A stretch of DNA of 64,000 nucleotides from an uncultured Alphaproteobacteria bacterium (GCA_963766355.1 CAVXZV010000006.1:7096-71095), one strand, 5' to 3'. Numbered from the stretch's first letter, positions 48,843 to 64,000 are shown. Notes: generated by a model from the letters alone, not told the origin. Translations and numbers: made by a program.

Positions 48843-49038
48843 CCGCGTTGGGGGAGGGGAAAGATTCTCAATTGTCCCTTTCACCTCCCCCTACGCGGGG
48901 AGGTCGACCTCCGAAGCTGCGCAGCAGCGTAGGAGGGCGGGTGGGGGGCTAGATGTCAGGAAACGGCGCCGACGATTCTACTCCAGAAGTTCTTGCTGTA
49001 GCCTTGGCACCGCGGGCGCTTGCCTTATATTGCAGCGT

Positions 49039-50142
49039 ATGACCGCCAGTAGAATCCACGCCGTTTATCACGTCCGCAGCGATGCAAAATCCATTGCCGC
49101 GCGCGCCGAAGGCATTGCCGTCGAACAAAGCGTCGAGATGCCCGTCAGCGCCATCGACGAACCGTTCGTGCTGAACGAGACGCTGGGAAAAGTCGAAAAC
49201 ATCGCCGATCTGGGCGGCGGACGGTTTGAAGTGCGCATTGGCCTCGCTGCGATTACGACAGGATTTGAGCCCGGCCAGCTGCTCAACATGCTGTTCGGAA
49301 ACAGCTCGATTCAAGATGATGTGACGCTCGTCGACGCACATTTTCCCGAGGAATTCGCCGCCATCTTCGGCGGGCCCAATCATGGCCTTGCTGGATTGCG
49401 GGCGCGGGTCGGCGCCAAAGCGGCACTCACCTGTTCGGCGCTGAAGCCGCAAGGTTCGACATCTGCCGCCTTGGCCAAGATCGCGGGACAAATCGCGGCC
49501 GGCGGGATCGATTACCTCAAGGACGATCACGGGCTTGCCAATCAAAGCTACAGCCCTTTCGCGGAGCGGGTGCCGGCGATCGCCGAGGCCGTGGCAAAGG
49601 CCGCCGCGCGCAGCGGCACGCCGACCCGTTATCTGCCCAGCCTCAACGGCAATCTGGATTCCCTGCGCGAGCAAGTGAGGCTGTGCCGTTCCTGCGGACT
49701 CGATACCGTGTTGATCGCGCCGATGATCGCGGGGCTGGCGCAATTCCACACCCTGGTGAAGGAAAACCCCGACATCGCCTTTGTCGCGCATCCTACCATG
49801 GCGGGTGCGGCGCGGATCATGCCTGCCTTTCTCATGGGCAAGTTGTTCCGCTTGCTCGGTTCGGACGGAACGATCTTCCCCAATTACGGCGGCCGTTTCG
49901 GCTATACGCAAGAAGAATGCCGGCGCCTCGCACGCTTTGCGCTGCAGGATTGGCACGGCGTCAAATCCTGCGTGCCGGTTCCCGCCGGCGGCATGAGTCT
50001 GGAGCGCATCGGCGAAATCCTGGATTTTTATGGCGTCGATGTCATGCTGCTGATCGGCGGCAGCCTTTTGGCGACGCGCGAGCGAATGACGCAAGAAACC
50101 GCCCGCTATGTCGAAGCGGTTCGAGGGTATAAAACCCGATGA
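49039..50142 (+). CDS. rlp: RuBisCO-like protein (form IV), probable methylthioribulose-1-phosphate isomerase
   Basis: CSALKPQG and GGIDYLKDDHGL (KDDH rather than KDDE), PVPAGGM, LLIGGSL; followed by a cupin. Confidence 0.85.
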   Translation: MTASRIHAVYHVRSDAKSIAARAEGIAVEQSVEMPVSAIDEPFVLNETLGKVENIADLGGGRFEVRIGLAAITTGFEPGQLLNMLFGNSSIQDDVTLVDAHFPEEFAAIFGGPNHGLAGLRARVGAKAALTCSALKPQGSTSAALAKIAGQIAAGGIDYLKDDHGLANQSYSPFAERVPAIAEAVAKAAARSGTPTRYLPSLNGNLDSLREQVRLCRSCGLDTVLIAPMIAGLAQFHTLVKENPDIAFVAHPTMAGAARIMPAFLMGKLFRLLGSDGTIFPNYGGRFGYTQEECRRLARFALQDWHGVKSCVPVPAGGMSLERIGEILDFYGVDVMLLIGGSLLATRERMTQETARYVEAVRGYKTR

Positions 50143-50615
50143 GTGCCATGGACAAACCCGAGACAAAAGACACGAACCCGGTGCGCCGGTTCCGCGATTA
50201 TCGCTGGGACGACACCGAGCTGCTGGCCTACAAGGAAGAGGGCAGTGCGCCCTTTAAGGCGATCACCCGTCAAACTCTATTCCGCGATCCGGCCTTGCGG
50301 GCCGAGCTGCGCTATTTCGAAGTCTCGCCGGGCGGTTATTCTACGCTCGAACGTCACGAGCACATGCATGCCGTTCTGATCCTGCGCGGCCGCGGCGAAT
50401 GCCTGATCGGCGCGGAAGTGCGCAAGATCGACACCAACGATCTGGTGACGGTTGCGCCATGGACCTGGCATCAGTTCCGCGCCAATGCCGACGCGCCGCT
50501 GGGCTTTCTCTGTATGGTCAATGTCGAGCGCGACAAACCGGTGCAGCCCAGCGAGGAAGAACGCAAAGCACTGGAGTCCGACCCAAAGATAGCGGCGTTT
50601 TTATGCGGCGACTGA
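50139..50615 (+). CDS. Cupin, probable MTXu-5P methylsulfurylase
   Basis: YFEVSPGGYSTLERHEHMHAV...WHQFRA; ATGA-coupled to the RLP. Confidence 0.75.
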   Translation: MSAMDKPETKDTNPVRRFRDYRWDDTELLAYKEEGSAPFKAITRQTLFRDPALRAELRYFEVSPGGYSTLERHEHMHAVLILRGRGECLIGAEVRKIDTNDLVTVAPWTWHQFRANADAPLGFLCMVNVERDKPVQPSEEERKALESDPKIAAFLCGD

Positions 50616-50627
50616 ATTGTCGAAGTT

Positions 50628-50870
50628 CCCTCGCCCCCGCAAGGGGGAGAGGGTTGGGGTGAGGGGGTGCCGATATCAAGCGCGTGCTTGACGCTCGCGA
50701 GCACCATCCCATCCGCAGCATAGTCGTTCGAAAAGCGCGTCACGCGAAATCCTTGCGCCCGCAGAAACTCTTTACGAGCCGCGTCTTACGCTTCTCGCTC
50801 CACATGAAGCGGAACAGCCAATTCGGCGGGCCCCCTCACCCCGGCCCTCTCCCCCTTGCGGGGGCGAGGG
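50628..50870 (-). mobile_element. Internally deleted DUF559 unit between two inverted hairpins
   Basis: Relic PLHVEREA*DAARKEFLRAQGFRVTRFSNDYAAD...TPSP matches the C-terminus of 62483-62869; hairpins at 50628-50667 and 50832-50870. Confidence 0.75.
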
Positions 50871-51265
50871 TGGCCACTACTCTACTTCCCTAACCTCCGC
50901 AGGGCCGCGAGCGCAGCTCGCGGGTGAGGGGGTAATGTCCGACTTGCGCCGATTGTCGCCGTTTCGACTAACATTCCGGCGCGCTAGGTTGAATGGGTGT
51001 AGATTTAGAGGAGGGGGCAGAAGATGAGATTACCTGTCGGAGCGCTAATCGTCATCGTGTCCATTGCGATGACTCCAGTCACCGCGGATGCAACCAATGT
51101 CAATACGCTCTCTCCTGTTGATCAGGCACAACTGGTAAGCACCGCCGTCAAGCTGAGAGAGGCAATCCTTCATGTTGACCCCAAATCCGTGGTCAGCCTA
51201 ATTAGTTCATCTGACGGTCTCATATGCACCGACACCCAGTACAATAAGGCTCAAGTCCGTAAGTA

Positions 51266-52798
51266 GTCGCCTGTGAAGAACGCGGAACGTGTTGGTACGA
51301 CGGCATTTTGAGGGCTTGAGCAAGTAATCGGTTTTGCAGGGTTTGGCAGGATGGGAACACGAAAGCTTGCAATTTCGAGGAGCATTTTGCGGATTCCGTC
51401 GGGCCTCGATCTATGATTCTTTGAGCGCATCGGGAGGACATCGATGCGGCCAGGCAAACAGGAATGGACGGGCGCTCAGGACATGTTCCGGGCGCGGCTC
51501 GATCAGATCATCAATCTCAAGCACGAGCTTGTCCGTTTGGCGGGCACGATTGATTGGTCGTGGATCGACGCGGAGTTGTCAGGCTGCTTCAGCGACGAAG
51601 GCCGCCCCGGTCTGACCACCCGCTTCATGGTCGGGCTTCTGCTCTTGAAGCACATTTACGGGCTGTCGGACGAAGAGGTCTGCGCACGCTGGGTCTACGA
51701 TCCATACTTTCAATACTTCACCGGCGAGGAGTTCTTCGCCCACGAGTTCCCTCATGAGCGCTCCGGGATGAGCCATTGGCGCAAGCGCATCGGCGGCAAG
51801 CTGGATGTGCTCTTGGCCGAAAGCCTGCGGGTGGCGCATGCGAGCGGCGCCTTGAAGACGAACGATCTGGCGCGGATCACGGTCGATACCACGGTGCAGC
51901 CCAAGAACGTGACGCATCCCACCGACGCCAAGCTGATGCTGACGGCGATCGAAAAGCTCGGCGCCCTGGCCAAGTCGCAGGGGCTGAAGCTCAGGCAATC
52001 CTATGCGCGGCTGGCCAAGCGGGCGGCGCTGATGGCGGGCCGGTACATCCATGCCAAGCAGTTCAAACGCGCCAACCGGGAATTGAGGTTCCTGCGCACC
52101 CGGCTGGGCCGGTTGATCCGCGATGTCCGGCGTAAGATCGAAGGCAACGATAGGCTGCAGGAGTTCTTTGCCGAGCCGCTCGACAAGGCCCTCAAAATCC
52201 GCTGGCAAAATCACAACCAGCGCGGCCGTAAGATTTACTCCTGGCATGCGCCGGAGACCGAGTGCATCGGCAAGGGCAAAGCTCACAAGCCTTATGAGTT
52301 CGGCGTCAAGGTCTCCGTTACCACCACCAACCGCCGCTGCAAGGGCGGCCAGTTCGTCCTCCACGCCAAGGCGCTGCCCGGTAACCCATACGACGGGCAC
52401 ACGCTGGGCGAAGTGATCGAGGAAACGCAGCAACTCACCGGACGCGAGATCGAGCGGGCCTATGTCGACAAAGGCTATCGCGGACACAATGCCCCAAAGC
52501 CACTTCGGGTCTTCACCTCCGGACAGAAGCGCGGCGTCTTCGGCGCCATCAAACGCGAACTTCGGCGCCGCTCGGCCATCGAGCCGGTGATCGGACACAT
52601 GAAGAGCGATGGCCACCTTGGCCGCAATTATCTCAAGGGCCGCCACGGCGATCACACCAACGCCGTGCTCAGCGCCGTCGGCCACAATCTCCGCCTCATA
52701 CTCAGGTGGCTGAGGCTTCTTTTGTATCTGATCCTTGCAGCAATCCGTGATGCCGTCACACCGCTATCACCCCTCAAACAGGCTTCTTAACGGACGAC
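51266..52798 (+). mobile_element. IS5-family insertion sequence (~1533 bp)
   Basis: IRs GTCGCCTGTGAAGAA / TTCTTAACGGACGAC; flanking direct repeat TAAGTA at 51260-51265 and 52799-52804 (end and TSD boundary ambiguous by 2 bp). Confidence 0.88.
51444..52790 (+). CDS. IS5-family transposase (start may be 51483)
   Basis: ITVDTTVQPKNV, GKAHKPYEFGVKV, YVDKGYRG, RRSAIEPVIGHMK. Confidence 0.92.
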   Translation: MRPGKQEWTGAQDMFRARLDQIINLKHELVRLAGTIDWSWIDAELSGCFSDEGRPGLTTRFMVGLLLLKHIYGLSDEEVCARWVYDPYFQYFTGEEFFAHEFPHERSGMSHWRKRIGGKLDVLLAESLRVAHASGALKTNDLARITVDTTVQPKNVTHPTDAKLMLTAIEKLGALAKSQGLKLRQSYARLAKRAALMAGRYIHAKQFKRANRELRFLRTRLGRLIRDVRRKIEGNDRLQEFFAEPLDKALKIRWQNHNQRGRKIYSWHAPETECIGKGKAHKPYEFGVKVSVTTTNRRCKGGQFVLHAKALPGNPYDGHTLGEVIEETQQLTGREIERAYVDKGYRGHNAPKPLRVFTSGQKRGVFGAIKRELRRRSAIEPVIGHMKSDGHLGRNYLKGRHGDHTNAVLSAVGHNLRLILRWLRLLLYLILAAIRDAVTPLSPLKQAS

Positions 52799-53153
52799 TA
52801 AGTATCTCTCGAATGTGAATAGCATCCTGTATCAGGGCCTTTTCAACGCAGCGCGCTTCTCCCGTCGGTGTGGCGCTGGGTATCCGCGAGAAACACCAGC
52901 AACGTCTGAAAAAGCATTCTTTGAAACAACTCCCAACGGCAGCATTGAGATCAAGCTCGTTAGTGGCGCCTATGCCACCGTTAAGTTTGTATCGCCGAAA
53001 GCCGCGTACTACCCCCGAGAGTACACCTTCAAAAAAGAAGGAACGAACTGGACGCTCGTTGAAGGCTTCATCATCGGAAGTTGCACTTGTGGGTAAGTCT
53101 CGACGGCCTACGCTGCACGAGCGTGATCAACCTACTGACGAACGACCGCTCGT

Positions 53154-53242
53154 GGTGCAAGTCAGGCATTACCCCCACCCGAAGCGCTCCGCGCTTCGCT
53201 CGTACGCTGGCGCTGCTCGCCCCCGCAAGGGGAAGGTGAAGG
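53154..53242. repeat. REP-like hairpin unit with 23-bp inverted partner of 50928-50950
   Basis: CCCCCACCC-stem-CTGCTCGCCCCC-gcaa-GGGGAAGG; RC of 53154-53176 matches 50928-50950 at 20/23. Confidence 0.7.
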
Positions 53243-53277
53243 TATGAGTTGGGCACGGTCATTCTGCTTCACATGTT

Positions 53278-54126
53278 CTATCGCGGCTTCGCTTTGTCGC
53301 CGGCATTCATTTCCACGGTTCCCAGCGCTTCCGCTAGCCTTGTCTTCGCACTTCCCGGCATGAGCGGTTTTTGCTGACTTTCATGTGGCGACCAGCCCGT
53401 CAAGTAGACGATATCGAAGGTCGCGCGCAGCCGCCCATCGCCATCCGCGTATTTCGCCGCGTAATGCGCTAATGCGGCTTGAAGCGTCGCGCGCGATAGT
53501 GTTCCGGCACGCCCGACGAGGGCATTGGTTTCGCCTAATAGGCGCAAATCACGGACGAGTGTTTGGAACTGACGATAATGCACCGTGGTGCGTTCCACAT
53601 CGGCCACCGGCAGGGCGAAGCCGGCGCGCTGCAGCAAACTGCCCAACTCGCGCACATCGGCAAACGGCGCCACGCGCGGCGTGATCCCGCCGAGGGTCTC
53701 GACCTCGCCGGTCGCGAAGGCGTCGCGCAACTCCGTCAGAGTTGCGCCGCCGAACAAGGCCGCCACGAACAATCCGTCCGGTTTGAGCGCGCGCCTGATT
53801 TGCAGAAGCGCTCCGGGAAGATCGTTGAGCCCGTGCAACGACAATAGGCTGACCGCCAAATCGAAAGTACCATCTGCAACGCCGAGCTTTTCGCCGCCGT
53901 CGAACGTCGCGATATTCCACTCCGCCGCAGAACCCTGCAGCATCGCGGCCGAGCGTCCATCGACCGCCAGCGCGGAGTGGAACGGCCGGTTCACGGGCGC
54001 AAGGCGGGCTTTTATTCCCTCGACCGCTTCGCGCAGCAGAAAGCGGTCGCCTTCCATGCGCAGAGCGCGGGCGCGACGCATTGCCTGGGTGCGGGGATCG
54101 AATAGCAGAGGAGGGCCGTTCGCCAT
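53278..54126 (-). CDS. SAM-dependent methyltransferase (BioC/NDUFAF5-like)
   Basis: LSLHGLNDLPGAL, LKPDGLF, PRVAPFADVRELGSLLQRAGFALPVAD; divergent from comF. Confidence 0.85.
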   Translation of the reverse strand: MANGPPLLFDPRTQAMRRARALRMEGDRFLLREAVEGIKARLAPVNRPFHSALAVDGRSAAMLQGSAAEWNIATFDGGEKLGVADGTFDLAVSLLSLHGLNDLPGALLQIRRALKPDGLFVAALFGGATLTELRDAFATGEVETLGGITPRVAPFADVRELGSLLQRAGFALPVADVERTTVHYRQFQTLVRDLRLLGETNALVGRAGTLSRATLQAALAHYAAKYADGDGRLRATFDIVYLTGWSPHESQQKPLMPGSAKTRLAEALGTVEMNAGDKAKPR

Positions 54127-54144
54127 TCGACTATATTAGCCGAC

Positions 54145-54909
54145 ATGAGCATGAGGATGGAAAGCCGTTGGAAAAAAGCGGGGCGCAAGGCCCTGAACTT
54201 GATCTTTCCGCCGCTCTGCATCGCTTGCCGTGAGCAAGTATCGGAACCGGGAAGCCTTTGTCCCAATTGCTGGCAGACGCTGCATTTTCTCGACGGGCCC
54301 GTCTGTTCCCAATGCGGATTGCCGTTCGAGTTCGATCCGGGCGGCGAAACGCTGTGCGTTGCCTGCATTGCCCACCCGCCGGCCTTCGATAAGGCGCGGG
54401 CGATCATGCGCTACGATGACGCCAGCAAAAAGCCGATCCTAGCCCTCAAACATGCCGACCGGCTGGACCTGGTTCCCTCATTCGGGCGGTGGCTGGAACG
54501 GTCGGGGCGGGAGCTTCTCGCCGGTTCCGATCTCATTGTTCCCGTGCCGCTGCATCGCTTGCGGCTCTGGATGCGGCGCTACAACCAGTCGGCCGAGCTG
54601 GCGCGCGCGCTGTCGCATATCGGCGCAATTCCGGTGGATTCCTTCGTCCTCAACCGAACCCGTCGGACACCGAGCCAGGGCGAGATGCCGTCGGCGAGTG
54701 CTCGCCGCCGCAACGTCCGCGGCGCCTTTACCGTGCCGGAGCGCTGCAAATCCGTCGTGGAGGGACGCAAAATCCTCTTGATCGACGATGTTATGACCAC
54801 GGGGGCGACCGTCAATGCCTGTGCCAAGGCACTCAAACGGGCGGGAGCGGCAAATGTTTACGTTCTGGCCTTGGCACGCGTTGTCCGACCGCTATCGGAC
54901 ACGATATAA
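54145..54909 (+). CDS. comF: ComF family amidophosphoribosyltransferase-like protein
   Basis: Double zinc ribbon, VPVPLH, RYNQS, LLIDDVMTTGAT. Confidence 0.9.
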   Translation: MSMRMESRWKKAGRKALNLIFPPLCIACREQVSEPGSLCPNCWQTLHFLDGPVCSQCGLPFEFDPGGETLCVACIAHPPAFDKARAIMRYDDASKKPILALKHADRLDLVPSFGRWLERSGRELLAGSDLIVPVPLHRLRLWMRRYNQSAELARALSHIGAIPVDSFVLNRTRRTPSQGEMPSASARRRNVRGAFTVPERCKSVVEGRKILLIDDVMTTGATVNACAKALKRAGAANVYVLALARVVRPLSDTI

Positions 54910-54938
54910 AAATCGTCACATCTGTTGCGTCCATGCCG

Positions 54939-55196
54939 ATGTCCAGAGTTCGCATCTACACGACACCCATCTGCCCATACTGCATGCGGGCAAAGGCTCT
55001 ATTCGCCAAGAAGGGTGTGCCCTTCGACGAGATCGACGTCTACATGGACGGCGATGCGCGCCAGGACATGGAAGCGCAAACCTGCGGCGCCCGCACCGTG
55101 CCGCAAATCTTTATTGGCGAGCGCCATGTCGGCGGTTGCGATGAACTCTATGAGCTGGACCGCGCGGGCGAACTCGACGTCCTGTTGGCGCAATGA
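54939..55196 (+). CDS. grxC: Glutaredoxin 3
   Basis: CPYC, TVPQIFIG, GGCDEL. Confidence 0.93.
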   Translation: MSRVRIYTTPICPYCMRAKALFAKKGVPFDEIDVYMDGDARQDMEAQTCGARTVPQIFIGERHVGGCDELYELDRAGELDVLLAQ

Positions 55197-56014
55197 CGAC
55201 ATTCAAAGCGGCCTGCGTTCAGTTGCGCTCTTCGGACGATGTTGCGGAGAACATCCGCATTGCGTCCGCCTTGATCCGCGAAGCCGCGGCCAAAGGCGCG
55301 CGCTTCATCGCCACACCGGAGAACACCACGCTGATGGCGCCGGATGGGGGCGCCAAGCTGGCGCATAGCCGTAACGAGGACGCCGATCCCGCTTTGCCGG
55401 CGTTTTGCGCGCTGGCAGAAGAATTGGGTGTGTGGCTGTTGATCGGATCGCTGGCGATCAAGGTCAGTGAAAGCAAAACCGCCAATCGATCCTTTCTGAT
55501 CGATCCGAAGGGAGCGATCGGCGCACGCTACAGCAAAATCCATTTGTTCGATGTCGATCTGCCTTCCGGCGAGAAATATCGCGAATCCAATACGGTCGAA
55601 GGCGGAAGTCTCGCGGTGACCGCCGATCTGCCTTGGGGCAAGATCGGTCTCAGCATCTGTTACGATATGCGCTTTCCGCAACTTTATCGCGCGCTGGCGC
55701 AGTCGGGCGCCTTCCTTTTCACGGCGCCGTCCGCGTTCACCGAAACCACCGGCAAAGCGCATTGGCATGTGCTGTTGCGCGCCCGCGCCATCGAGAACGG
55801 CGCCTTCGTCATCGCGCCGGCGCAGGGCGGAGCGCACGCGAACGGGCGCAAGACCTATGGCCACTCGCTGATTGTCGCGCCATGGGGCGAGATATTGGCC
55901 GAGGCCGCAAGCGATCCTTGCGTCATTATGGCGGATATCGATCCGGCGCTATCGGCAGAAGCTAGAGCCCGCATACCGAATCTCCAACACGATCGGCCTT
56001 TCGAACTATCATGA
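55193..56014 (+). CDS. Carbon-nitrogen hydrolase (Nit1/deaminated glutathione amidase-like)
   Basis: TPEN, YSKIHLFDV, SICYDMRFP, LLRARAIEN, TYGHSLIV. Confidence 0.9.
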   Translation: MTTFKAACVQLRSSDDVAENIRIASALIREAAAKGARFIATPENTTLMAPDGGAKLAHSRNEDADPALPAFCALAEELGVWLLIGSLAIKVSESKTANRSFLIDPKGAIGARYSKIHLFDVDLPSGEKYRESNTVEGGSLAVTADLPWGKIGLSICYDMRFPQLYRALAQSGAFLFTAPSAFTETTGKAHWHVLLRARAIENGAFVIAPAQGGAHANGRKTYGHSLIVAPWGEILAEAASDPCVIMADIDPALSAEARARIPNLQHDRPFELS

Positions 56015-56475
56015 GAATTTGCATCGAAAGCCCCGCTTCGCCCGCGGCGCAACTGCTCATGGCCGCGCTCGATGAAGATATCGTGTCCCGCTATCCCGGC
56101 GAGCCGACCAACGGCATCGACGCGGCGCAATTCGAAGCGTCGGGCGGCGTGTTCGTCGTGTGCTACGTCGATGACATCCCCGCCGCTTGCGGTGCGTTTC
56201 GTCCATTCGAAGGGGCTGTCGAGATCAAAAGAATGTTTGTCGCACCTGCGCTGCGCGGCCGCGGGCTGGCGCGCGCCATGCTCGACTTTTTGGAAGCGGA
56301 AGCCATCAAAAAGGGCTATGCGCGTGCGGTTTTGGAGACAGGACGCCAAATGACGGAAGCACTTGGCTTGTATCGCTCGCGCGGCTGGAAGGAGATACCC
56401 GCCTTCGGTCAGTTTGTGGGCGATCCCAAGAGCATCTGTTTCGAGAAATCTCTCGCTCCAGTGGCGAAGGGTTAA
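56011..56475 (+). CDS. GNAT N-acetyltransferase
   Basis: EIKRMFV...RGRGLA, LETG, LYRSRG. Confidence 0.85.
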   Translation: MRICIESPASPAAQLLMAALDEDIVSRYPGEPTNGIDAAQFEASGGVFVVCYVDDIPAACGAFRPFEGAVEIKRMFVAPALRGRGLARAMLDFLEAEAIKKGYARAVLETGRQMTEALGLYRSRGWKEIPAFGQFVGDPKSICFEKSLAPVAKG

Positions 56476-56540
56476 CGGCTTGCGAAGCATAGTCATTCGG
56501 CCCATCATTTGCTGTTGATCCAAAAGGCTGGCGTATCCGC

Positions 56541-56954
56541 GTGATCGTCTACAACCTCAGATGCAAAAACGGCCACGAATTCGAGGGCTGGTTCCAAAGC
56601 GGCGAGGCGTTCGACGTCCAATGCGCGCAGAGAAAACTCCTCTGCCCGATGTGCGATACGCACCAAGTCGAAAAGGCCATCATGGCGCCTGCCGTGGCCG
56701 GGACGAAAAAGAAATCCGCCAAAGACGAATTGACGAAAATGCGCCAATTCGTAACCGGCATGCGCAAATACGTCGAAGAGAATGCCGAGTATGTCGGTCC
56801 GAGCTTTCCCGAAGAGGCGCGCAAAATCCATTATGGCGAAAGCGAAGAGCGTCACATCTATGGCGAGGCGACGCTGAAGGAAGCCAAGGAATTGATCGAG
56901 GAGGGCGTCGACGTCGCGCCCCTTCCGCCCAATTTGGATGAGACGGCGAACTAA
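56541..56954 (+). CDS. DUF1178 family protein
   Basis: CKNGHEFEGWF, CPMC, KAIMAP, EYVG..FPEEARKIHYGE. Confidence 0.88.
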   Translation: MIVYNLRCKNGHEFEGWFQSGEAFDVQCAQRKLLCPMCDTHQVEKAIMAPAVAGTKKKSAKDELTKMRQFVTGMRKYVEENAEYVGPSFPEEARKIHYGESEERHIYGEATLKEAKELIEEGVDVAPLPPNLDETAN

Positions 56955-56961
56955 TTGCCTT

Positions 56962-57007
56962 CCCTCGCCCCCAAAGGGGAGAGGGAGATTCTGATCTATT
57001 TCCCCGC
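56962..57007. repeat. Hairpin plus 12-bp copy of the ubiG 3' tip
   Basis: CCCTCGCCCC-caaa-GGGGAGAGGG followed by CTATTTCCCCGC (minus strand A-G-K-stop). Confidence 0.75.
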
Positions 57008-57341
57008 ATCAGCTATCTTATCTCAGCCCGCACCAAACAAGTTACATGGGGATCCAGGTTTTCGTATCACACGATACGAGACGAAGCGTCGCTGCAAGGT
57101 CAGCCATCGGACGACCGCGGACCTAACCCATTGGGCAGAAACGTGCCACTTGAGGACATTTGTCTGGCAGGCAAACCCTAGCTGTTCCTTAATATTTCTA
57201 TCCGAGCGGTAATTAGGCCGTCAGGTCACATCCCATAGACTGGCGACAGGCTGCCGATTGTATTGTTCCGTTCTCATTAAGACGTGAAGGCTATCGTTAG
57301 AGAATACGTCCGGCCGCCGACGGGGAGGAAATTGCACGAGC

Positions 57342-58622
57342 ATGATATCGGCAGTGAAATCTGTTTCCAGAACGCTCACGAGGCAGAGAATCGCCTTTGC
57401 CGTCATTGCTGGCTTGTTCGTCATTTGGGGGCTTGCCCTTTGGCTGTACAACGCGTTGTTTTTCATGTTCGCCAATTCCTTTGCCTTCGAACCCGTACAG
57501 GTAGCGTGGGCGCTTTCGCTTTACAGCATTGCCTACTGCCTTCTTGCGATTCCGGCCGCCCTGATTCACCGTCGCTTCGGCTACAAACTGGGCTTGCTGT
57601 TCGGCTTCAATGTTTTCGTATTTGGCGCGTTTCTGCTCTATCTCGCCATTATCCAAAACAGTATCGCTTGCTTCCTGGGCGCCATCGTGATGATGGGTTC
57701 TTGCGGGACATTGTTTGACACGTCTTTAAATCCGCTGGCGGTTGAAGCTGGAAGCCCGCAAACGTCCGTGGCGAGGTTGAATCTTGCCCATGTCTTTAAC
57801 GGATTCGGCCTACTCGTCGCTTACTTCGCCGTTATTTGGTTGACCGAAAGAAACTACCACCTGTCCCCAGGGGCGGAGGCGCACTCATCTTTACGTCCAT
57901 ACGTTCTTATCGGTTTGGCAGCCATCCTGCTGGCGTACCTTTTCGAGCAGGTATCGCTTCCTGGCTTTGCCGCCAATCCCACGGAGAGAGCTTCAGACAT
58001 CCGCGGGGAACTCCGCTCTTTGTTTCGCGACAGAAACTTTCTCATCGCCGCCACGTCGTTGTGCGCCTACACAATTGTGCTGACGATTCTCTGGACCTCG
58101 AACTACAATTACCGTGTGCATGAATTGCCGGGACACAGCGTCGGGCTCATTGAAAGAGGGCCCATCTGGTTCGTGATCGGACGGTGCGTTGGGACCGCAT
58201 TCATGCGTTGGATTGATCCAACCCGTCTGCTGCAGTGGACCACCGGCCTGTGCCTGATCGCGATCGCGATAACGGCAGCGGCAGGCGGCATGGTAGGCTG
58301 GGTGTGCCTGCTTTCCGCCAGTCTATTCCTGTCTATCATGTTCCCGACCGTTTTTGGTTCGGCAATCTGCCGACACCGGACTCGCATGAAACTTGCCGCA
58401 GGTGTTTTGGTGGCAGCGGCCGGCTTTGGCAACGCGCTGTCGGCGCTGTTTGTCGCACTGGCATTGCACGCACTGCACATAGACGCTCGAATAGTCATTC
58501 TCCTGGCTTTGCCGTTTCTGGCAATCATCCTGATTTATTCATTGGTGCAGCACTCGGGTCACAAGCGGGCACGCAACACCGAGCAACATGCAGTGACGCA
58601 GGCCAATGAGATTCTCATTTGA
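57342..58622 (+). CDS. MFS transporter, divergent FucP/GluP-like
   Basis: About 12 TM; RFGYKLG, DTSLNPL, RLNLAHVFNGFG, LSIMFPTVF. Confidence 0.78.
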   Translation: MISAVKSVSRTLTRQRIAFAVIAGLFVIWGLALWLYNALFFMFANSFAFEPVQVAWALSLYSIAYCLLAIPAALIHRRFGYKLGLLFGFNVFVFGAFLLYLAIIQNSIACFLGAIVMMGSCGTLFDTSLNPLAVEAGSPQTSVARLNLAHVFNGFGLLVAYFAVIWLTERNYHLSPGAEAHSSLRPYVLIGLAAILLAYLFEQVSLPGFAANPTERASDIRGELRSLFRDRNFLIAATSLCAYTIVLTILWTSNYNYRVHELPGHSVGLIERGPIWFVIGRCVGTAFMRWIDPTRLLQWTTGLCLIAIAITAAAGGMVGWVCLLSASLFLSIMFPTVFGSAICRHRTRMKLAAGVLVAAAGFGNALSALFVALALHALHIDARIVILLALPFLAIILIYSLVQHSGHKRARNTEQHAVTQANEILI

Positions 58623-58714
58623 GTTTGCGGCGCGCCGAGAGCAGGCACTACCGAGTGATCGATTTTGGCCCGAGGCTGCCGTAGCACCCCAACGGGGGCG
58701 AGGGAGAATCTGAT

Positions 58715-58998
58715 TTATTTCCCCGCCACCACCATGTAATTCACATCCGTATCGCCGGACTGTTTCCGCTGCCATGCCAAGGGATCGAAGCTCACGCCTT
58801 GCGCCTTCAGCACATGTAGGCCGGCGTCTTCGAGCAATTCCCGAAGCCGGCGAGGTTCGACAAAGCGGCTCCAGTCATGGGTGCCGCGCGGCAGCCAGCG
58901 CAGCAAATATTCCGCACCGATCTTTGCCAGCGCCAGCGACTTGAGAGTCTTGTTCAACGTTGCGACGAACATCAAGCCGCCGGGCTTGCCCAGCCGCC
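58715..58998 (-). pseudogene. Duplicated ubiG 3' end (284 bp)
   Basis: Aligns with 63079-63362; about 33 mismatches by manual count (~88%), mostly third-position. Confidence 0.9.
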
Positions 58999-59015
58999 AG
59001 TGTGAACGGGGCGGG

Positions 59016-59888
59016 CTAAATGCACTCAAATTGATCCAAAACGCCATCCGGTCGACGGTGCAAGGAACACAAACGCTCGCCGTTCTCAAATTCGACCGTG
59101 TAAATGCTGGACGGATTGTCACTGTAGACGGGGCTTCCGCCATCAGGCGACCAGCCTATGATCGGAAAATACTGGTTGACATAGACCACCGATACGATTT
59201 TTCCCAACGGACGTAGATCGTCTGGTGTCAAAAACGCAAATAGCTGCTTTTCTACATCAACTGGCAGAGGCACTACCGCTGGACTCGACAAAACATAGTG
59301 CGGCTTGGTGTAGGCCTCGGTAACATGCCCATCAGCCATTTCCTCCAACAGACGCCTCAGAAACGCGGATTGCCCGCCAGTGTCCGCAATGTTGTCGGAT
59401 AACACCGGTTTCGTGATCGTCATGGGCGCCCAGTTTTCGTGCAGCCGCCCGTCGCAGACCACGCCGAGATGTCCGAAAATCTCGGTCTTGGATTGCAGGT
59501 GACCGCGGAACGTCCAACGGCAACCCGAAGTGTTCCCCCAAACCACTTTCCAGGAAAGCACGACCAGCCCGCCCGCGTCGAGCGCTGCCCGCGATTCCCG
59601 CTCCGTGGTCTCAAAGCAGTTGAAACTGAATCCGGGCTCCGCAAGTCCTAGGCGGCAGTACATTTCCGGACCCATCATTTTGAAGAAGGCCCCATTCGAC
59701 CACAAAAGCGCCCGGCGCTCGTGCGGAGGAAATCGCCAAATGCCCGGAAGGACATTATTGGCCTCAACCATTACACGTTCAAGATCACCAGATGTAGCGC
59801 TTTCAGCCATGGCTGCCTCGCAGACAGCCATAGCTGAACAGACTACCGACAGCACGGCGGCTGCCGCTGTGTGGAATGCGCGTTTCAT
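59016..59888 (-). CDS. Hypothetical secreted protein
   Basis: Signal peptide MKRAFHTAAAAVLSVVCSAMA; lower GC; Cys-containing; no family recognised. Confidence 0.6.
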   Translation of the reverse strand: MKRAFHTAAAAVLSVVCSAMAVCEAAMAESATSGDLERVMVEANNVLPGIWRFPPHERRALLWSNGAFFKMMGPEMYCRLGLAEPGFSFNCFETTERESRAALDAGGLVVLSWKVVWGNTSGCRWTFRGHLQSKTEIFGHLGVVCDGRLHENWAPMTITKPVLSDNIADTGGQSAFLRRLLEEMADGHVTEAYTKPHYVLSSPAVVPLPVDVEKQLFAFLTPDDLRPLGKIVSVVYVNQYFPIIGWSPDGGSPVYSDNPSSIYTVEFENGERLCSLHRRPDGVLDQFECI

Positions 59889-60149
59889 GGAACCCTCAGT
59901 CACATTTAATGCGTTCAGACGACACATAGCAAGGCGCCGGTATTTGGATGGCCAATGTTGGTGCATTTGTGACGCAACAGGCACTAGTAATTCGGCGCCA
60001 CATCCGAACGCAAAAACGATGTCCGGCTCGAGCTGCGCAAGGAAATCTGCCGGACGCCCTGCGATATGCGCACTTGCGGCCGGGCAGGTGTCAAACCTAG
60101 GCTGGCCCGCCATCGTCTTGTGCCATCTTGGGCGCCAAAGGGGGAAGTC

Positions 60150-61523
60150 GTGAAGAACCAATGCATGCGGATCGTATTTGTTGCGGCGTTGTCGGGTTGT
60201 CTTTTGCCGCCGAACCTTGCAGTCGCTGCCGACCCCGCCTCAACCCAGCGACCTATGCTTGACAATGCGCAGGACCTTTTGCCCTTTTACCTCCCCAATC
60301 CTGCGTATTTGCGCGCGGAGGAGCAGCGGAAAGCAGGGGGGCATGACAACATCGAGGCGGCCGCGGCTTTGCTGTTGAGCAAAGCGTATGACGATCTGAA
60401 ATCCAAGAGCTGGACAGACGCGATATCGAAATGCAAGGAGGCTGGATCGCTTGCCGGTCTCTCGGATTTCGACAAGTTCTTGGTCAACTACTTCCTTGGA
60501 ATCGCCTATTACCGTCTGGGCGACACCGAGAATGCAGCAGCCTCGTACTACGCGGCAGCGCAGTTTTCTGGTGTGCGGGCGGACATGCGCACCACGGCCA
60601 TCCTGAGCGCCGCCCAGCTCGAGAACGACACCAAGCATCCGGACAAAGTCGCCATTCTTGTCAAGATGGCGGACACCGCCGGCATCGCCGACGAGAAAAT
60701 CTACGACCTCGGTGCTATCGCCTATTACGACAGCGGCAACGACGCGGAAGCGAGAACGATGGCCGACAAAGCGATAAGCCAAGCGACGAAATCCGGCCAT
60801 GGAGCGTCGCGCATCGGCTGCCAGATCGCGCTCATGGCGGAAGTTCGCCAAATGGATCTCGCCGCATTAAATCGCACGCTCAAAACAAGGTGCTCACAAT
60901 TCGGCGACAGCAAGGATTGGGGTCATCTGATCGACGTAGGTCTGGGTTCTCTGCGCCAAGGGGCATCTGATGAAGAGTCCGTCGATGTTGCGGCGTTCTA
61001 TATGTACCGGTTGCGCCTCCTCACCGATGCCGAATCCGGCAGCAACGACTATCTGATGGCGGCTGAGGCCGGCATCGACTTCGACACACCTGGCGATACG
61101 TATCTCGCCATCCGAACGGCGCACAAGCGCGGTCTGTTGAACGGCAATGTGCAGGCAAGCGCGATGCTTGCCATAGCGGACGAACAGGCGGCCAAAGATG
61201 GGCGCGCGGTGGCGGAGGCCAGGGCGAAAGACGGCGGTGCGCTGGTAGCGATTGGAGAACGTCAATTCGGTTACGGGCGCTATACGGACGCAATCCGCCT
61301 TGCGCGCGCCGCCTTGTCGAAAGGCGGCGGCAATACCGCTCATGCCCTCATGCTGTTGGGCGCGGCTCAAGTCATGAACGGCGAAAGCACGGCGGGAGCC
61401 GCAACGCTCGCGGGCATCTCCGGCGATCCAGCGATGGCGAAAGCGGCTCACTTGTGGTTGATCTACGCGACACAAACATACGGCCAGTCCGGTCCTTCCG
61501 CGGCAGCGACACCCCATTTGTGA
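60150..61523 (+). CDS. Secreted TPR-like helical protein
   Basis: Signal peptide; YFLGIAYYRLGD and similar TPR-like helices. Confidence 0.7.
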   Translation: MKNQCMRIVFVAALSGCLLPPNLAVAADPASTQRPMLDNAQDLLPFYLPNPAYLRAEEQRKAGGHDNIEAAAALLLSKAYDDLKSKSWTDAISKCKEAGSLAGLSDFDKFLVNYFLGIAYYRLGDTENAAASYYAAAQFSGVRADMRTTAILSAAQLENDTKHPDKVAILVKMADTAGIADEKIYDLGAIAYYDSGNDAEARTMADKAISQATKSGHGASRIGCQIALMAEVRQMDLAALNRTLKTRCSQFGDSKDWGHLIDVGLGSLRQGASDEESVDVAAFYMYRLRLLTDAESGSNDYLMAAEAGIDFDTPGDTYLAIRTAHKRGLLNGNVQASAMLAIADEQAAKDGRAVAEARAKDGGALVAIGERQFGYGRYTDAIRLARAALSKGGGNTAHALMLLGAAQVMNGESTAGAATLAGISGDPAMAKAAHLWLIYATQTYGQSGPSAAATPHL

Positions 61524-61819
61524 AGCTGTCGATCGTCCGTCGTTCCGAGACTTTGTCTTTGACAAGCCCCAAAAGGTCCGCTTCGGCGATCACAGAGGCG
61601 TGCTTTTGAAACATCGGCATGGTCGCCCCCGACAGCGCAACGAGCCCTAAACGGAAGCGGCGCGAATGGCGAGTTCTCGTCCTCTTGCGAAGGAGAACGG
61701 ATTACCGCTTTCGGGCTGACTTTTGCCGCTCGATCGAGGCCCGCCTCGCGCCAAGAGTTGCCGTTCGCGGCGCCGACTTGCTCGTGTATACTTCGTGGTG
61801 TCTGAATAGGTGAATCTCA

Positions 61820-62077
61820 ATGAGTGATTTCCTCTATTGGGCTTCGCTCATCGGTGTGCCGGTCGCCGTTGTGGTGTATGCCAAGTATCGACGCAGGCGG
61901 TTTGTCGCAAAACGAAACGACAGCGTAACAATCCCTGTTGCGAGTTCCGTCTGTGCGTTTACTGGCGACATCGTCGCGCCCGGCTCAGATTCATGTTGTT
62001 GGCCCGCCTGCGACGGCGCTCATGGGTGCGATGGCACTATGGCGCACGGTTGCGACGCCGGACACGGCGGACACTAA
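61820..62077 (+). CDS. Small membrane-anchored protein with Cys/His/Gly-rich tail
   Basis: N-terminal TM followed by KYRRRR, then SCCWPACDGAHGCDGTMAHGCDAGHGGH. Confidence 0.55.
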   Translation: MSDFLYWASLIGVPVAVVVYAKYRRRRFVAKRNDSVTIPVASSVCAFTGDIVAPGSDSCCWPACDGAHGCDGTMAHGCDAGHGGH

Positions 62078-62243
62078 CCAGCGGACGCACATCCCGAAAG
62101 ACGGTTCTGGCGCATCCCATCCGTTGAAACGCTGGGTGGCACCTCCGCTTTTGGACTATATCCTGCCATCGCGGCTGAGTATCGCGGGCCCCAATTGATC
62201 AGCCCGCTTAGAAACTAATTTTCCCGCTCCCTCCGCAGCGATC

Positions 62244-62457
62244 CCCTCTCCCCCGCAGGGGGAGAGGGTTAGGGTGAGGGGGTGCTGATATCGAGTGCGT
62301 TCTTTACGGTCACGAGCACGATGCCGATATCATCCGCGGCATAGTCATTTGGAAAGCGCAATACGCGAAAACCTCGAGCCTTAAGAAATGCATCACGGGC
62401 CGAGTCGTACTCAGCCCGTGCGGCATGAAACGGTCCATCCAATTCCACGATTAGCTT
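62244..62457 (-). pseudogene. 5'-truncated DUF559 copy (63 codons) plus terminal hairpin
   Basis: KLIVELDGPFH...GFRVLRFPNDYAADD...TPSP*, diverged from the full copy. Confidence 0.85.
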
Positions 62458-62482
62458 CCCTCGCCCCCGCAGGGGGAGAGGG

Positions 62483-62869
62483 TTAGGGTGAGGGGGTGCT
62501 GGTATCGAGTGCGTTCTGTACGGTCACGAGCACGATGCCGATATCGTCCGCGGCATAGTCATTTGCAAAGCGCAATACGCGAAACCCGCGAGCCTCTAGA
62601 AATGCATCGCGGGCCGCGTCGTACGCCGACCGGGCAGCATGAAACGGCCCATCCAATTCGACAATCAGCTTGTGTTCGACACACACGAAATCGACGATGT
62701 AGGGGCCGATGAGGAACTGACGTTTGAACTTATATCCGCCGAGTTTGCGATTGCGCACTTCGGACCAGAATAATTTTTCCATCGTAACCGGTTTGTGGCG
62801 CATCTTTCGCGCCCGCGTGCGGTTTTCGGTGAGCGATCTTCGCCCCTTTGCGGTTGTATCGCTGACCAT
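62483..62869 (-). CDS. DUF559 (Vsr-like PD-(D/E)XK) endonuclease
   Basis: MEKLFWSEVRNRKLGGYKFKRQFLIGPYIVDFVCVEHKLIVELDGPFH...RDAFLEARGFRVLRF. Confidence 0.9.
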   Translation of the reverse strand: MVSDTTAKGRRSLTENRTRARKMRHKPVTMEKLFWSEVRNRKLGGYKFKRQFLIGPYIVDFVCVEHKLIVELDGPFHAARSAYDAARDAFLEARGFRVLRFANDYAADDIGIVLVTVQNALDTSTPSP

Positions 62870-62970
62870 CCTCCTCACCCCGGCCCTCTCCCCCCATGGG
62901 GGAGAGGGAGATTATTATTCTACTTCCCTCGCCCCCGCAGGGGGAGAGGGTTAGGGTTAGGGTGAGGGGG
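62870..62970. repeat. Back-to-back GC hairpins upstream of DUF559
   Basis: CCTCACCCCGG-CCCTCTCCCC...GGGGAGAGGG at 62870-62908 and CCCTCGCCCCCGCAGGGGGAGAGGG-TTAGGGTTAGGGTGAGGGGG at 62926-62970. Confidence 0.85.
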
Positions 62971-63047
62971 TGCTGGTATCGAGTGCGTTCTTTACGGTCA
63001 CGAGCACGATGCCGATATCGTCCGCGGCGTAGTCTTTTGCAATACGC
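62951..63047 (-). pseudogene. Second, shorter DUF559 3' relic
   Basis: DYAADDIGIVLVTVKNALDTSTPSP*; 7-nt microhomology deletion (TTGC) at its 5' side. Confidence 0.8.
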
Positions 63048-63078
63048 CACACACGACAGCGGAGAGGGAGACTTCGAT

Positions 63079-63806
63079 CTATTTCCCCGCCACCACCATG
63101 TAATTCACGTCGGTATCGCCGGACAGTTTCCACTGCCACGCCAAGGGATCGAAGCTCACGCCTTGGGTCTTCAGCACATGTAGGCCGGCGTCTTCGAGGA
63201 GCTCGTGAAGTCGGCGTGGTTCGACGAAACGGCTCCAGTCATGGGTGCCGCGCGGCAGCCAGCGCAGCACATATTCGGCGCCGATCTTTGCCAGCGCCAG
63301 TGATTTGAGCGTCTTGTTCAAAGTCGCCACGAACATGAGTCCGCCCGGCTTGGTAAGCCGCCCGCAAGCGCCAAGATAGAAGCGCAGATCGGCGACATGC
63401 TCGACGACTTCCATATTCAGAACCACGTCGAAAGCGCGGCCCTCTTCGGCAAGTGATTCGGCCGAGGTTGCGCGATAATCGACGGCGAGCCCGAGGCGGC
63501 CGCATGGGTAGCCGCTGTTTTGATGTTTTTTTCCGAAGCGTCGGCCCCCAAAACATCGAATCCCAAACGGGCCATCGGCTCGCACAGCAGCCCGCCGCCG
63601 CAGCCGATATCCAAGAGGGAGAGACCTTGGAATGGTTTTAGTCCCTGGCGCCCGAAATGCTTGGCCGCGGTCTCGCGGATAAATCCGAGCCGGATGGGGT
63701 TGAACTTGTGCAGGGGGGCGAATTTGCCGGTCGGGTCCCACCATTCGGCGGCTATAGCCGTGAACTTCGCGACTTCGGCGGGATCGATGGAAGGAGCTTC
63801 GGTCAT
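63079..63806 (-). pseudogene. ubiG: Ubiquinone O-methyltransferase UbiG with one frameshift near 63490 (probably intact in vivo)
   Basis: [37 protein letters not shown] / [29 protein letters not shown]. Confidence 0.9.
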
Positions 63807-63886
63807 GCGTGGTTTTCGCCGTTGAGCAAGGGGCTGGTGCCGTCTATGTATGACCAGGAACGGCAGGCGCGCAAACGGGCGGACCC

Positions 63887-64000
63887 ATGGCGAAGATAGC
63901 GATGAAATTCGGCGGGACTTCGGTGGCCGACCTAGATCGTATCCGCCATGTCGCCGGTCTGGTGGCCAAGGAGGTCGAGCGCGGGCACCAGGTCGCGGTC
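63887..64000 (+). CDS. lysC: Aspartate kinase, 5' end
   Basis: [23 protein letters not shown]; divergent from ubiG. Confidence 0.88.

Follow-up and report, generated by a model that had tools for sequence, protein, structure and literature searches.

The window analysed here is a stretch of 64,000 nucleotides from an uncultured Alphaproteobacteria bacterium. In its last quarter the gene of a RuBisCO-like protein (RLP) and a cupin gene are followed by an inserted block, and a SAM-dependent methyltransferase gene lies on the other side of this block. In the block, a DUF559 relic is separated by a 15-nt spacer from a second cassette, whose ends are TM variants (the TM repeat is described below). 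The relic (50628-50870, 243 bp) is made of two inverted arms with the remnant of a DUF559 gene between them, and it begins 12 nt past the cupin stop. The features are as follows.

49030-50142, gene of the RuBisCO-like protein, upstream of the cupin gene
50139-50615, plus strand, cupin gene (PF07883, E = 1.8e-11), left anchor of the site
50616-53277, inserted block of 2,662 nt, from the cupin stop to the methyltransferase stop
50628-50667, plus strand, left end module of the relic, a type-A-like TM matching the TMECO consensus: pyrimidine arm 50628-50638, loop GCAA, purine arm 50643-50653, spacer TTG, third arm 50657-50667
50668-50830, minus strand, decayed C-terminal remnant of DUF559, keeping codons ~74-131 of the intact protein
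50831-50870, minus strand, right end module of the relic, a type-B TM with spacer CCG on the sense strand of the gene: third arm 50831-50841, spacer, pyrimidine arm 50845-50855, loop, purine arm 50860-50870
50871-50885, spacer tggccactactctac of 15 nt between the relic and the next hairpin
50886-50950, plus strand, degenerate form of the TM variant that has a mini-hairpin between its purine arm and its third arm, plus the shared terminal sequence
53278-54126, minus strand, SAM-dependent methyltransferase gene (Pfam methyltransferase domains), right anchor of the site

Alignment showed that 50886-50950 is the left end of the neighbouring cassette, whose inverted partner lies at about 53154-53245. 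This cassette (50886-53245) holds an orphan ORF interrupted by an IS5 element (51444-52790), and its ends have the terminus GGGTGRGGGGTAATGYCYGACTTGC in common.

A repeat search showed that the two arms of the relic (50628-50667 and 50831-50870) are 40 nt each, complementary at 38 of 40 positions (95%) and separated by 163 nt. The strand from 50620 to 50880 was folded on its own as a duplex only, and gave a terminal stem of 40 bp and an energy of -83.4 kcal/mol, against -50.6 ± 3.7 for shuffled sequences (z = -8.8; none of 200 was as good). Each end has the layout CCCTC(G/T)CCCCC, a loop of 3-4 nt, GGGGGAGAGGG, a 3-nt spacer and GGGTGAGGGGG. This is the layout of the TM/TMECO elements, which we take to be equivalent to the BoxC or PIT elements of E. 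coli. Holder et al. (2015, NAR; PMC4666352) gave the TM/TMECO consensus as CCCTCNCCC-N3-6-GGGNGAGGG-N3-GGGNGAGGG, a G/C-rich intrastrand triplex motif. Both arms of the relic fit this consensus, and the TMECO sequences in Table 1 of that study are nearly identical to them (PMC4666352). E. coli K-12 has five inverted TM pairs, each consisting of one type A (spacer TTA) and one type B (spacer CCG) (PMC4666352). The spacers are TTG on the left and CCG on the right in the relic, and TTA and CCG in the intact copy described below; in both, type A stands at the 3' side of the gene and type B at its 5' side. Judged by these sequences, the ends of the relic are three-armed TM/TMECO (BoxC/PIT) elements and not generic hairpins, and their A+B pairing is the same as that known for E. 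coli.

On its right side, the relic is followed by a flank that also stands beside the intact copy. TCTACTTCCCT was found at 50881-50891 and again at 62919-62929. The 15-nt spacing together with the ...CTAC-TTCCCT junction recurs at 62909-62929 and on another contig (C4:4398-4418), and TTCCCT at both right flanks opens another hairpin unit, degenerate at 50886-50933 and intact at 62924-62970.

Between the arms, the minus strand translates to ELAVPLHVEREA*DAARKEFLRAQGFRVTRFSNDYAADGMVLASVKHALDIGTPSP. A tblastn search with the intact copy (62483-62878) aligned 58 aa of this remnant at 62% identity (E = 1e-16), interrupted by one stop and a gap of 2 codons. The internal stop is a TAA at 50786-50788 (plus-strand coordinates). 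There is also a 6-nt deletion, ELDG has become ELAV, and nothing is left of the N-terminal half, which holds the catalytic core. The PF04480 match covers the whole domain in the intact copy and only about the last 58 residues in the relic, so that the relic is a fragment of a DUF559 member, without an intact frame or the conserved core (YIVDF ... ELDG). Aligning all units placed its deletion from just past the start codon up to the ELDG motif, a loss of about 68 codons, and the right edge of the deletion is 6 nt from the type-B third arm. The GTG start of the family is still found at 50837-50839 (minus strand) within the right module. The frame from this GTG in the third arm reads VRGPAELAVPLHVEREA*, which indicates that the deletion is in frame. 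At the left end, the change of the spacer from TTA to TTG means that the original stop codon was lost.

An earlier description made from the sequence of the window alone (the sequence-only reading) had proposed an internally deleted DUF559 unit that retains both inverted hairpin ends around a decayed C-terminus of about 150 nt, followed on the right by the same spacer and TCTACTTCCCT as at 62909-62930. Our results agree with the deletion, the retained 40-nt ends, the right-hand spacer, the decay and the internal stop. Two details are corrected: the interior is 163 nt long, and each "hairpin", although indeed one of an inverted pair, is three-armed (a pyrimidine arm, a purine arm and a third purine arm).

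The end arms of the relic are about 95% identical to the consensus, against 69-71% identity for the interior. Compared with the resident copies, identity is 74-75% over about 200 nt including the left arm and 69-71% for the interior alone; divergence from every other copy is 25-31%. Against the two nearest copies (U1 and U2), the Nei-Gojobori method gave a dS of 0.64-0.75 and a dN/dS of 0.30-0.32. These values suggest that most of the divergence of the remnant accrued while it was coding and that it died late. The nearest sequences are the copies of its own genome and the locus L155 in another species (60-67% aa identity), and no nearer intact relative was found among the species representatives scanned. 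No second locus with the breakpoints of the relic was found in the genome, where this form is single-copy.

The reference for an undamaged unit lies 12 kb away in the window.

62456-62910, minus strand, intact unit: type-A TM, DUF559 ORF 62483-62878, type-B TM

Its gene encodes a protein of 131 aa on the minus strand (PF04480, E = 6.8e-37, model positions 3-108 of 109). The expression signals of the gene coincide with the TM arms. The TTA spacer of the type-A TM is, on the other strand, the TAA stop of the gene (62483-62485); the GTG start is within the type-B third arm (62876-62878); and the purine arm GGAGAGGG is Shine-Dalgarno-like and stands 4 nt upstream of the GTG (span 62870-62899).

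Counts of the arm motif GGGMGAGGG-N2-5-GGGTGAGGG were 19 in this genome and between 3 and 41 in TM-positive relatives, with none for the reversed control, and a wider census by regular expressions gave 36 TM loci in this genome. About 14 DUF559 paralogues are present. As the sequence-only reading had anticipated, searching the genome brought up further copies with the same end modules: a cluster at 62244-63075 in the window with one intact and two truncated units, two N-terminal relics on contig C12, a relic on C9, and on C19 a diverged intact DUF559 (52% identical) with a TM at the 5' end only. Contact with DUF559 sequence was seen at about 14 of the 36 TM loci, compared with about 0.05 expected by chance, given that DUF559 sequence with 60-nt margins makes up about 0.15% of the genome. 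All copies within the genome are old (at most 91% alike). The two C12 relics are the only same-breakpoint pair in the genome, and they have their outer flanks in common, which points to segmental duplication rather than transposition. In four independent truncations (U1, U3, the relic U4, and U5/U6), at least one breakpoint lies within 17 nt of a TM arm. This agrees with the small, hairpin-preserving TM-associated deletions reported by Holder et al. (PMC4666352).

Some copies also share their surroundings. The ubiG tails are common to U3, 56962 and C12, and L155, an 87%-identical copy in another species, likewise adjoins ubiG tails. This fits inheritance, or exchange by homologous recombination together with the flanks. 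C9:2400-2560 and C19:70700-70850 have in common the 3' end of an adjacent gene (...catggggcgattag), the TM and the opening codons of a DUF559 gene; here a gene tail, a hairpin and the 5' end of the nuclease gene appear to have been copied together, like the ubiG tails. A solo hairpin in the window (56958-57005) combines a left-type pyrimidine arm (CCCTCGCCCCC) with a right-type purine arm, the right-hand spacer and a ubiG-like tail, and has no third arm. It may be a recombination product of the palindromic ends of a unit, like a solo LTR, or alternatively a hairpin that was never filled.

Other arrangements were seen in the same genome. On C10 (80333-80743), a type-A/type-B TM pair of the same polarity frames a gene of the RraB family (PF06877, E = 9e-16). 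The mini-hairpin TM variant has about 8 copies (contigs C13, C21, C23, C30 and C31). One of them stands at the 5' end of a DUF559 paralogue that is 37% identical to the intact protein (C21:160799-161270), and a second variant follows the stop of this paralogue in the same orientation as the first.

C21:160810-161184, DUF559 paralogue flanked by the TM variant

The site of the relic was compared with its counterparts in related genomes. Scanning metagenome contigs with the cupin protein gave 80 loci, and the 15 with a cupin of at least 76% aa identity were compared. In all 15 (cupin 76-87% aa), a convergent methyltransferase gene comes next and the block is missing. The methyltransferase homologues are 70-87% identical (aa) and lie directly against the cupin stop in the relatives; in 11 of the 15 loci, the distance between the two stop codons is only -7 to +2 nt, so that they abut or overlap. 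The remaining variation includes unrelated, non-TM palindromic inserts of 73-336 nt, which were present in 4 of the 15. Among 40 related species genomes, the RLP-cupin pair was found at about 70% identity, with a different downstream context in G002. By this comparison the site of the relic is an insertion, and this evidence is independent of the ubiG locus, as the sequence-only reading had claimed. It also contradicts an interpretation in which RLP-cupin belongs to the accessory block. The inserted block is composite, so the relic may not have arrived alone.

No target-site duplication was found at the edges of the relic's arms. The one candidate, ATTGTCGAAGTT (50616) against ATTGTCGCCGTT (50952), agrees at 10 of 12 positions. 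This is at chance level, with about 4 such matches expected per 500 bp, and the copy at 50952 lies inside the next cassette. We also considered that a doublet, formed by the right hairpin of the relic and the next hairpin, had inserted into a full gene, and discarded this idea, as no N-terminal DUF559 sequence lies to its right.

Filled and empty junctions were found for other TM pairs in the genus, whose genomes are only about 70-80% identical, so that the junctions are not resolvable to the base. At the yfhM-like|pbpC-like junction, G005 has an intact TM-DUF559-TM unit; in G014 and G001 the two genes overlap by ATGA, and in five further genomes unrelated inserts are present. A gene-less doublet form (TM-A, 23-45 nt, TM-B) also occurs. 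It stands between serS and surE in G005, where G004, G006, G013, G008, G014 and G003 have 0-10 nt or an overlap, and between coaBC and dut in G006, where seven others including the genome studied here have a GTGA overlap. These contrasts suggest that the TM pairs are inserted units. They bear out the claim of the sequence-only reading that hairpin, gene and hairpin move and decay together, in so far as pairs with and without a gene fill junctions that are empty in sister species. Genes other than DUF559 are framed as well, so hairpin-DUF559-hairpin is not the only form of the unit.

For TM pairs within 700 nt in 8 relatives, the third arms faced inward in 45 cases and outward in none. Their spacers mix T-type and C-type in most pairs, not in all. 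Each filled site has a further 10-35 nt of unrelated sequence on the outer side of its TM arms. Beyond the arms, the outer flanks of the filled sites showed no consensus other than A/T-rich extensions of 2-4 nt (aatt-CCCTC ... GAGGG-aatt), and no target duplication was seen at them, an identity of 70-80% giving no fine resolution. TMs of the genus mostly stand alone or have no gene. No U2-like DUF559 was found in the TM-rich genomes G006, G020, G013 and G003, which are incomplete MAGs. The interiors of two doublets in G006 (L025 and L024) open with the 3' end of DUF559. Together, the sizes form a series: about 455 bp for the gene-bearing unit, 243 bp for the relic and about 100 bp for the gene-less doublets. 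The start and stop layout within the arms recurs in several related species of the genus and, beyond it, in further Alpha- and Gammaproteobacteria.

G020 also carries a family of TM-ended units of 178-183 bp with a palindromic, non-DUF559 interior; the interiors are 61-84% alike and the flanks unrelated. Over three species (G020, G006 and G023), TM-ended members of 164-183 bp with the interior cagaagtcagaa ... ttctgacttctg were seen at unrelated loci.

L011, L012, L014, L016 and L020 (G020), L023 (G006), L143 and L145 (G023), loci of the 164-183-bp family

Among other framed genes in the relatives are a SEC-C-like gene (G020, L015) and an unknown ORF of 83 aa (G023, L138).

We propose, with a probability of about 0.72, that the relic is a dead single-gene cassette, consisting of a type-A TM, a minus-strand DUF559 gene (a Vsr-like PD-(D/E)XK nuclease) and a type-B TM, with the following history and membership in a family of TM pairs. 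In such a cassette the end modules would hold the expression signals of the gene, with the type-B purine arm as a Shine-Dalgarno-like sequence and the GTG in the third arm. The ancestor of the relic would have entered the cupin|methyltransferase junction as inserted DNA, the step that the empty sites show. For most of its separate history it was probably a coding gene, judging from the dN/dS of about 0.3 and the dS of about 0.7. One in-frame deletion would then have removed the 68 or so codons; later it would have acquired the internal stop, lost another 6 nt and lost its own stop codon. The relic as it stands is inert, neither coding for anything nor amplified. Deletions starting from or next to a TM arm, as in the four independent relics, fit the published TM-associated instability and would provide a route from the 455-bp gene-bearing unit through a 243-bp form to the gene-less doublets of about 100 bp that are common in the genus. 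For the family as a whole, TM pairs with inward third arms would be an inserted unit that lands at gene junctions and leaves no detectable target duplication.

A different account, which we consider distinctly less probable, treats the DUF559 gene as a passenger. The TMs would then be self-standing, REP-like repeats that are moved or generated by other means and make the DNA unstable, the relic would be the result of a TM-stimulated deletion in a gene caught by accident between two of them, and hairpin-gene-hairpin would be no unit. The abundance of gene-less and solo copies, the TM-rich genomes without a U2-like DUF559, the other genes between TM pairs and the deletion breakpoints that hug the TM arms all favour this account. 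So does the finding of Holder et al. that TMs are tied to local rearrangement, with no mobility genes found near them (PMC4666352). It is opposed by the start codon, ribosome-binding site and stop codon built into the TM arms, a layout that recurs across species, and by a second DUF559 subfamily that is paired with a second TM variant. Furthermore, an intact unit stands as one insert where sister species have a 4-nt gene overlap, and the share of TM loci that touch DUF559 sequence (about 14 of 36) also speaks against a passenger.

The sequence-only reading had gone further and regarded the 243-bp unit as a probable non-autonomous, MITE-like derivative, mobilised after its deletion in trans by the intact DUF559 unit. 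The ends are indeed retained and better preserved than the interior, the intact unit is only 12 kb from the relic, constant-length MITE-like families with TM ends exist in relatives, and the site is an insertion. Our results nevertheless make this improbable. The relic is single-copy, its breakpoints are common to no other locus, it is 25-31% diverged from the resident intact copy, and it sits in a composite 2.66-kb stack. The dN/dS of about 0.3 means that it was coding for most of its divergence and was therefore probably full-length on arrival. Nor did the suggested check for a target duplication bring up anything visible at the relic beyond the chance-level repeat of 10/12. Being single-copy, diverged and free of a target duplication, the relic is best read as having decayed in place.

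That the structure is a functional RNA or a terminator of the RLP-cupin operon, with an incidental similarity to DUF559, is very improbable: its position just past the cupin stop and its very stable fold would suit such a role, but the promoter and terminator scan gave no T-tract terminator and no promoter, the Rfam matches in 50000-64000 were microRNA and snoRNA models only, spurious and far below thresholds, 15 of 15 relatives do without the structure, and the protein homology has an E of 1e-16.

Within the cassette reading, three ways of movement were weighed. The DUF559 nuclease is the obvious candidate for the mover, given the start and stop signals in the arms, the recurrence of this layout across Alpha- and Gammaproteobacteria and the pairing of a second subfamily with a second TM variant. 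The idea of a simple DUF559 transposon is opposed by the missing target duplication, outer termini that are not sharply shared, the TM-rich relatives without a U2-like DUF559 and the TM pairs framing other genes. This counter-evidence leaves it rather unlikely that the nuclease acts on its own TM ends. A trans-acting or host process that moves TM units, with DUF559 as the commonest cargo, has a somewhat better chance, still short of even. Spread by homologous recombination with the flanking gene ends takes the remaining share. Copies that share the 3' tail of a neighbouring gene (ubiG; C9/C19) point to recombination with the flanks rather than transposition.

The cassette can be compared with several known systems. 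Like TM/TMECO elements, it has the same arm sequence and spacing (CCCTCKCCCCC, loop, GGGGGAGAGGG, N3, GGGTGAGGGGG), is intergenic and multi-copy, forms inverted pairs of a TTA-type and a CCG-type, shows small deletions that keep the hairpin, and has no transposase or integrase nearby. Unlike them, the pair here frames a nuclease gene or its remnant and its arms carry the start and stop signals of the gene; Holder et al. reported neither a gene associated with the TMs nor an insertion polymorphism seen as empty sites in other species (PMC4666352). The resemblance to REP/REPIN-RAYT systems (REPtrons) consists in a small gene between inverted hairpin repeats that are also dispersed as gene-less doublets, at gene ends and without target duplication. 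However, the gene here is a Vsr-like nuclease (PF04480), not an HUH Y1 transposase (PF01797), and the TM repeat is three-armed. RAYTs are typically single-copy and vertically kept, whereas the DUF559 gene is multi-copy and often decayed.

As in MITEs, terminal inverted repeats (40 nt) are kept around a 163-nt interior derived from the 3' part of DUF559, the element is small (243 bp), and related gene-less families of constant length occur in relatives. In contrast to MITEs, the relic has no target-site duplication and no transposase and is not amplified; copies at several unrelated loci were found for the TM-ended 180-bp family in G020 and G006, not for the relic. Vsr-like (EDxHD) homing endonuclease genes such as I-Bth0305I are also small, free-standing genes of a Vsr-fold nuclease with inserted and empty sites. 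Their target is conserved, whereas the filled sites here are different, unrelated gene junctions without a common target sequence; the unit also has structured end repeats. Finally, integron cassettes (attC) share the single promoterless genes, the imperfect hairpin boundaries, the head-to-tail stacks and the mixed cargo (here DUF559, RraB and orphan ORFs). They differ by an integrase and attI, neither of which is present here, and by one attC per cassette instead of two inverted hairpins.

TM/BoxC repeats have already been described, with no report of their origin, partner protein or mode of spread, and in the literature searched we found no paper linking DUF559 or YcjD with them. The relic, its intact neighbour and the filled and empty sites together suggest that inward-facing TM pairs are inserted units, that their cargo can be a Vsr-like nuclease gene with start and stop signals that are part of the arms, and that erosion from the arms turns gene-bearing units into gene-less doublets. 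The relic would be an intermediate between nuclease-carrying hairpin cassettes and the gene-less doublets known in bacteria and so far unexplained. Binding or cutting of the TM ends by DUF559 is a hypothesis raised by this layout that could be tested cheaply. Odd peptides rich in Pro, Gly and Ser stand at both ends of many annotated DUF559 proteins, and start and stop signals placed in TM arms would explain such termini. For annotation, the region should be described as a pseudogene in a repeat-bounded insert, not as a gene, an RNA or a terminator.

A bolder extension, which we offer as speculation with the odds well against it, is that the inverted TM doublets of proteobacteria, the five A+B pairs of E. 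coli K-12 among them, arose by erosion of DUF559 cassettes. The protein partner missing so far would be DUF559, recognising the three-armed ends and making or moving them, the relic would be an erosion intermediate caught in the act, and TM pairs would be a hairpin-ended cassette system that also carries other small genes.

Several further observations concern junctions and hairpins in other genomes. At filled sites in the relatives, the outer purine arm gives the displaced downstream gene (dut or surE) a Shine-Dalgarno-like sequence and a new ATG. Palindromic elements of several unrelated kinds have their hot spots at junctions where genes abut tightly (yfhM-like|pbpC-like, cupin|methyltransferase and serS|surE).

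L149 and L150 (G008:C75 and G002:C39), L154 (G000:C2:34200-34850), L055, L057 and L060, loci of the hot-spot junctions

A palindromic element of G002 has the ends ...gggaccgcggac... and frames about 300 nt. In G014 (L137), another DUF559 is framed by a different hairpin, CCCTCCCC-TTGA-GGGAGGG. Plasmids gave only 4 weak DUF559 matches and no sign that they carry the unit. In E. coli K-12 (NC_000913.3, 1351000-1351800; L051), the DUF559 gene ycjD stands where other E. coli phylogroups have the eefRABCD operon (PMC12817139, 2026). It ends within a CCCTCGCTC/GGGAGAGGG hairpin; a duplicate of part of its 3' end comes next, and TMECO #9 of Holder et al. after that.
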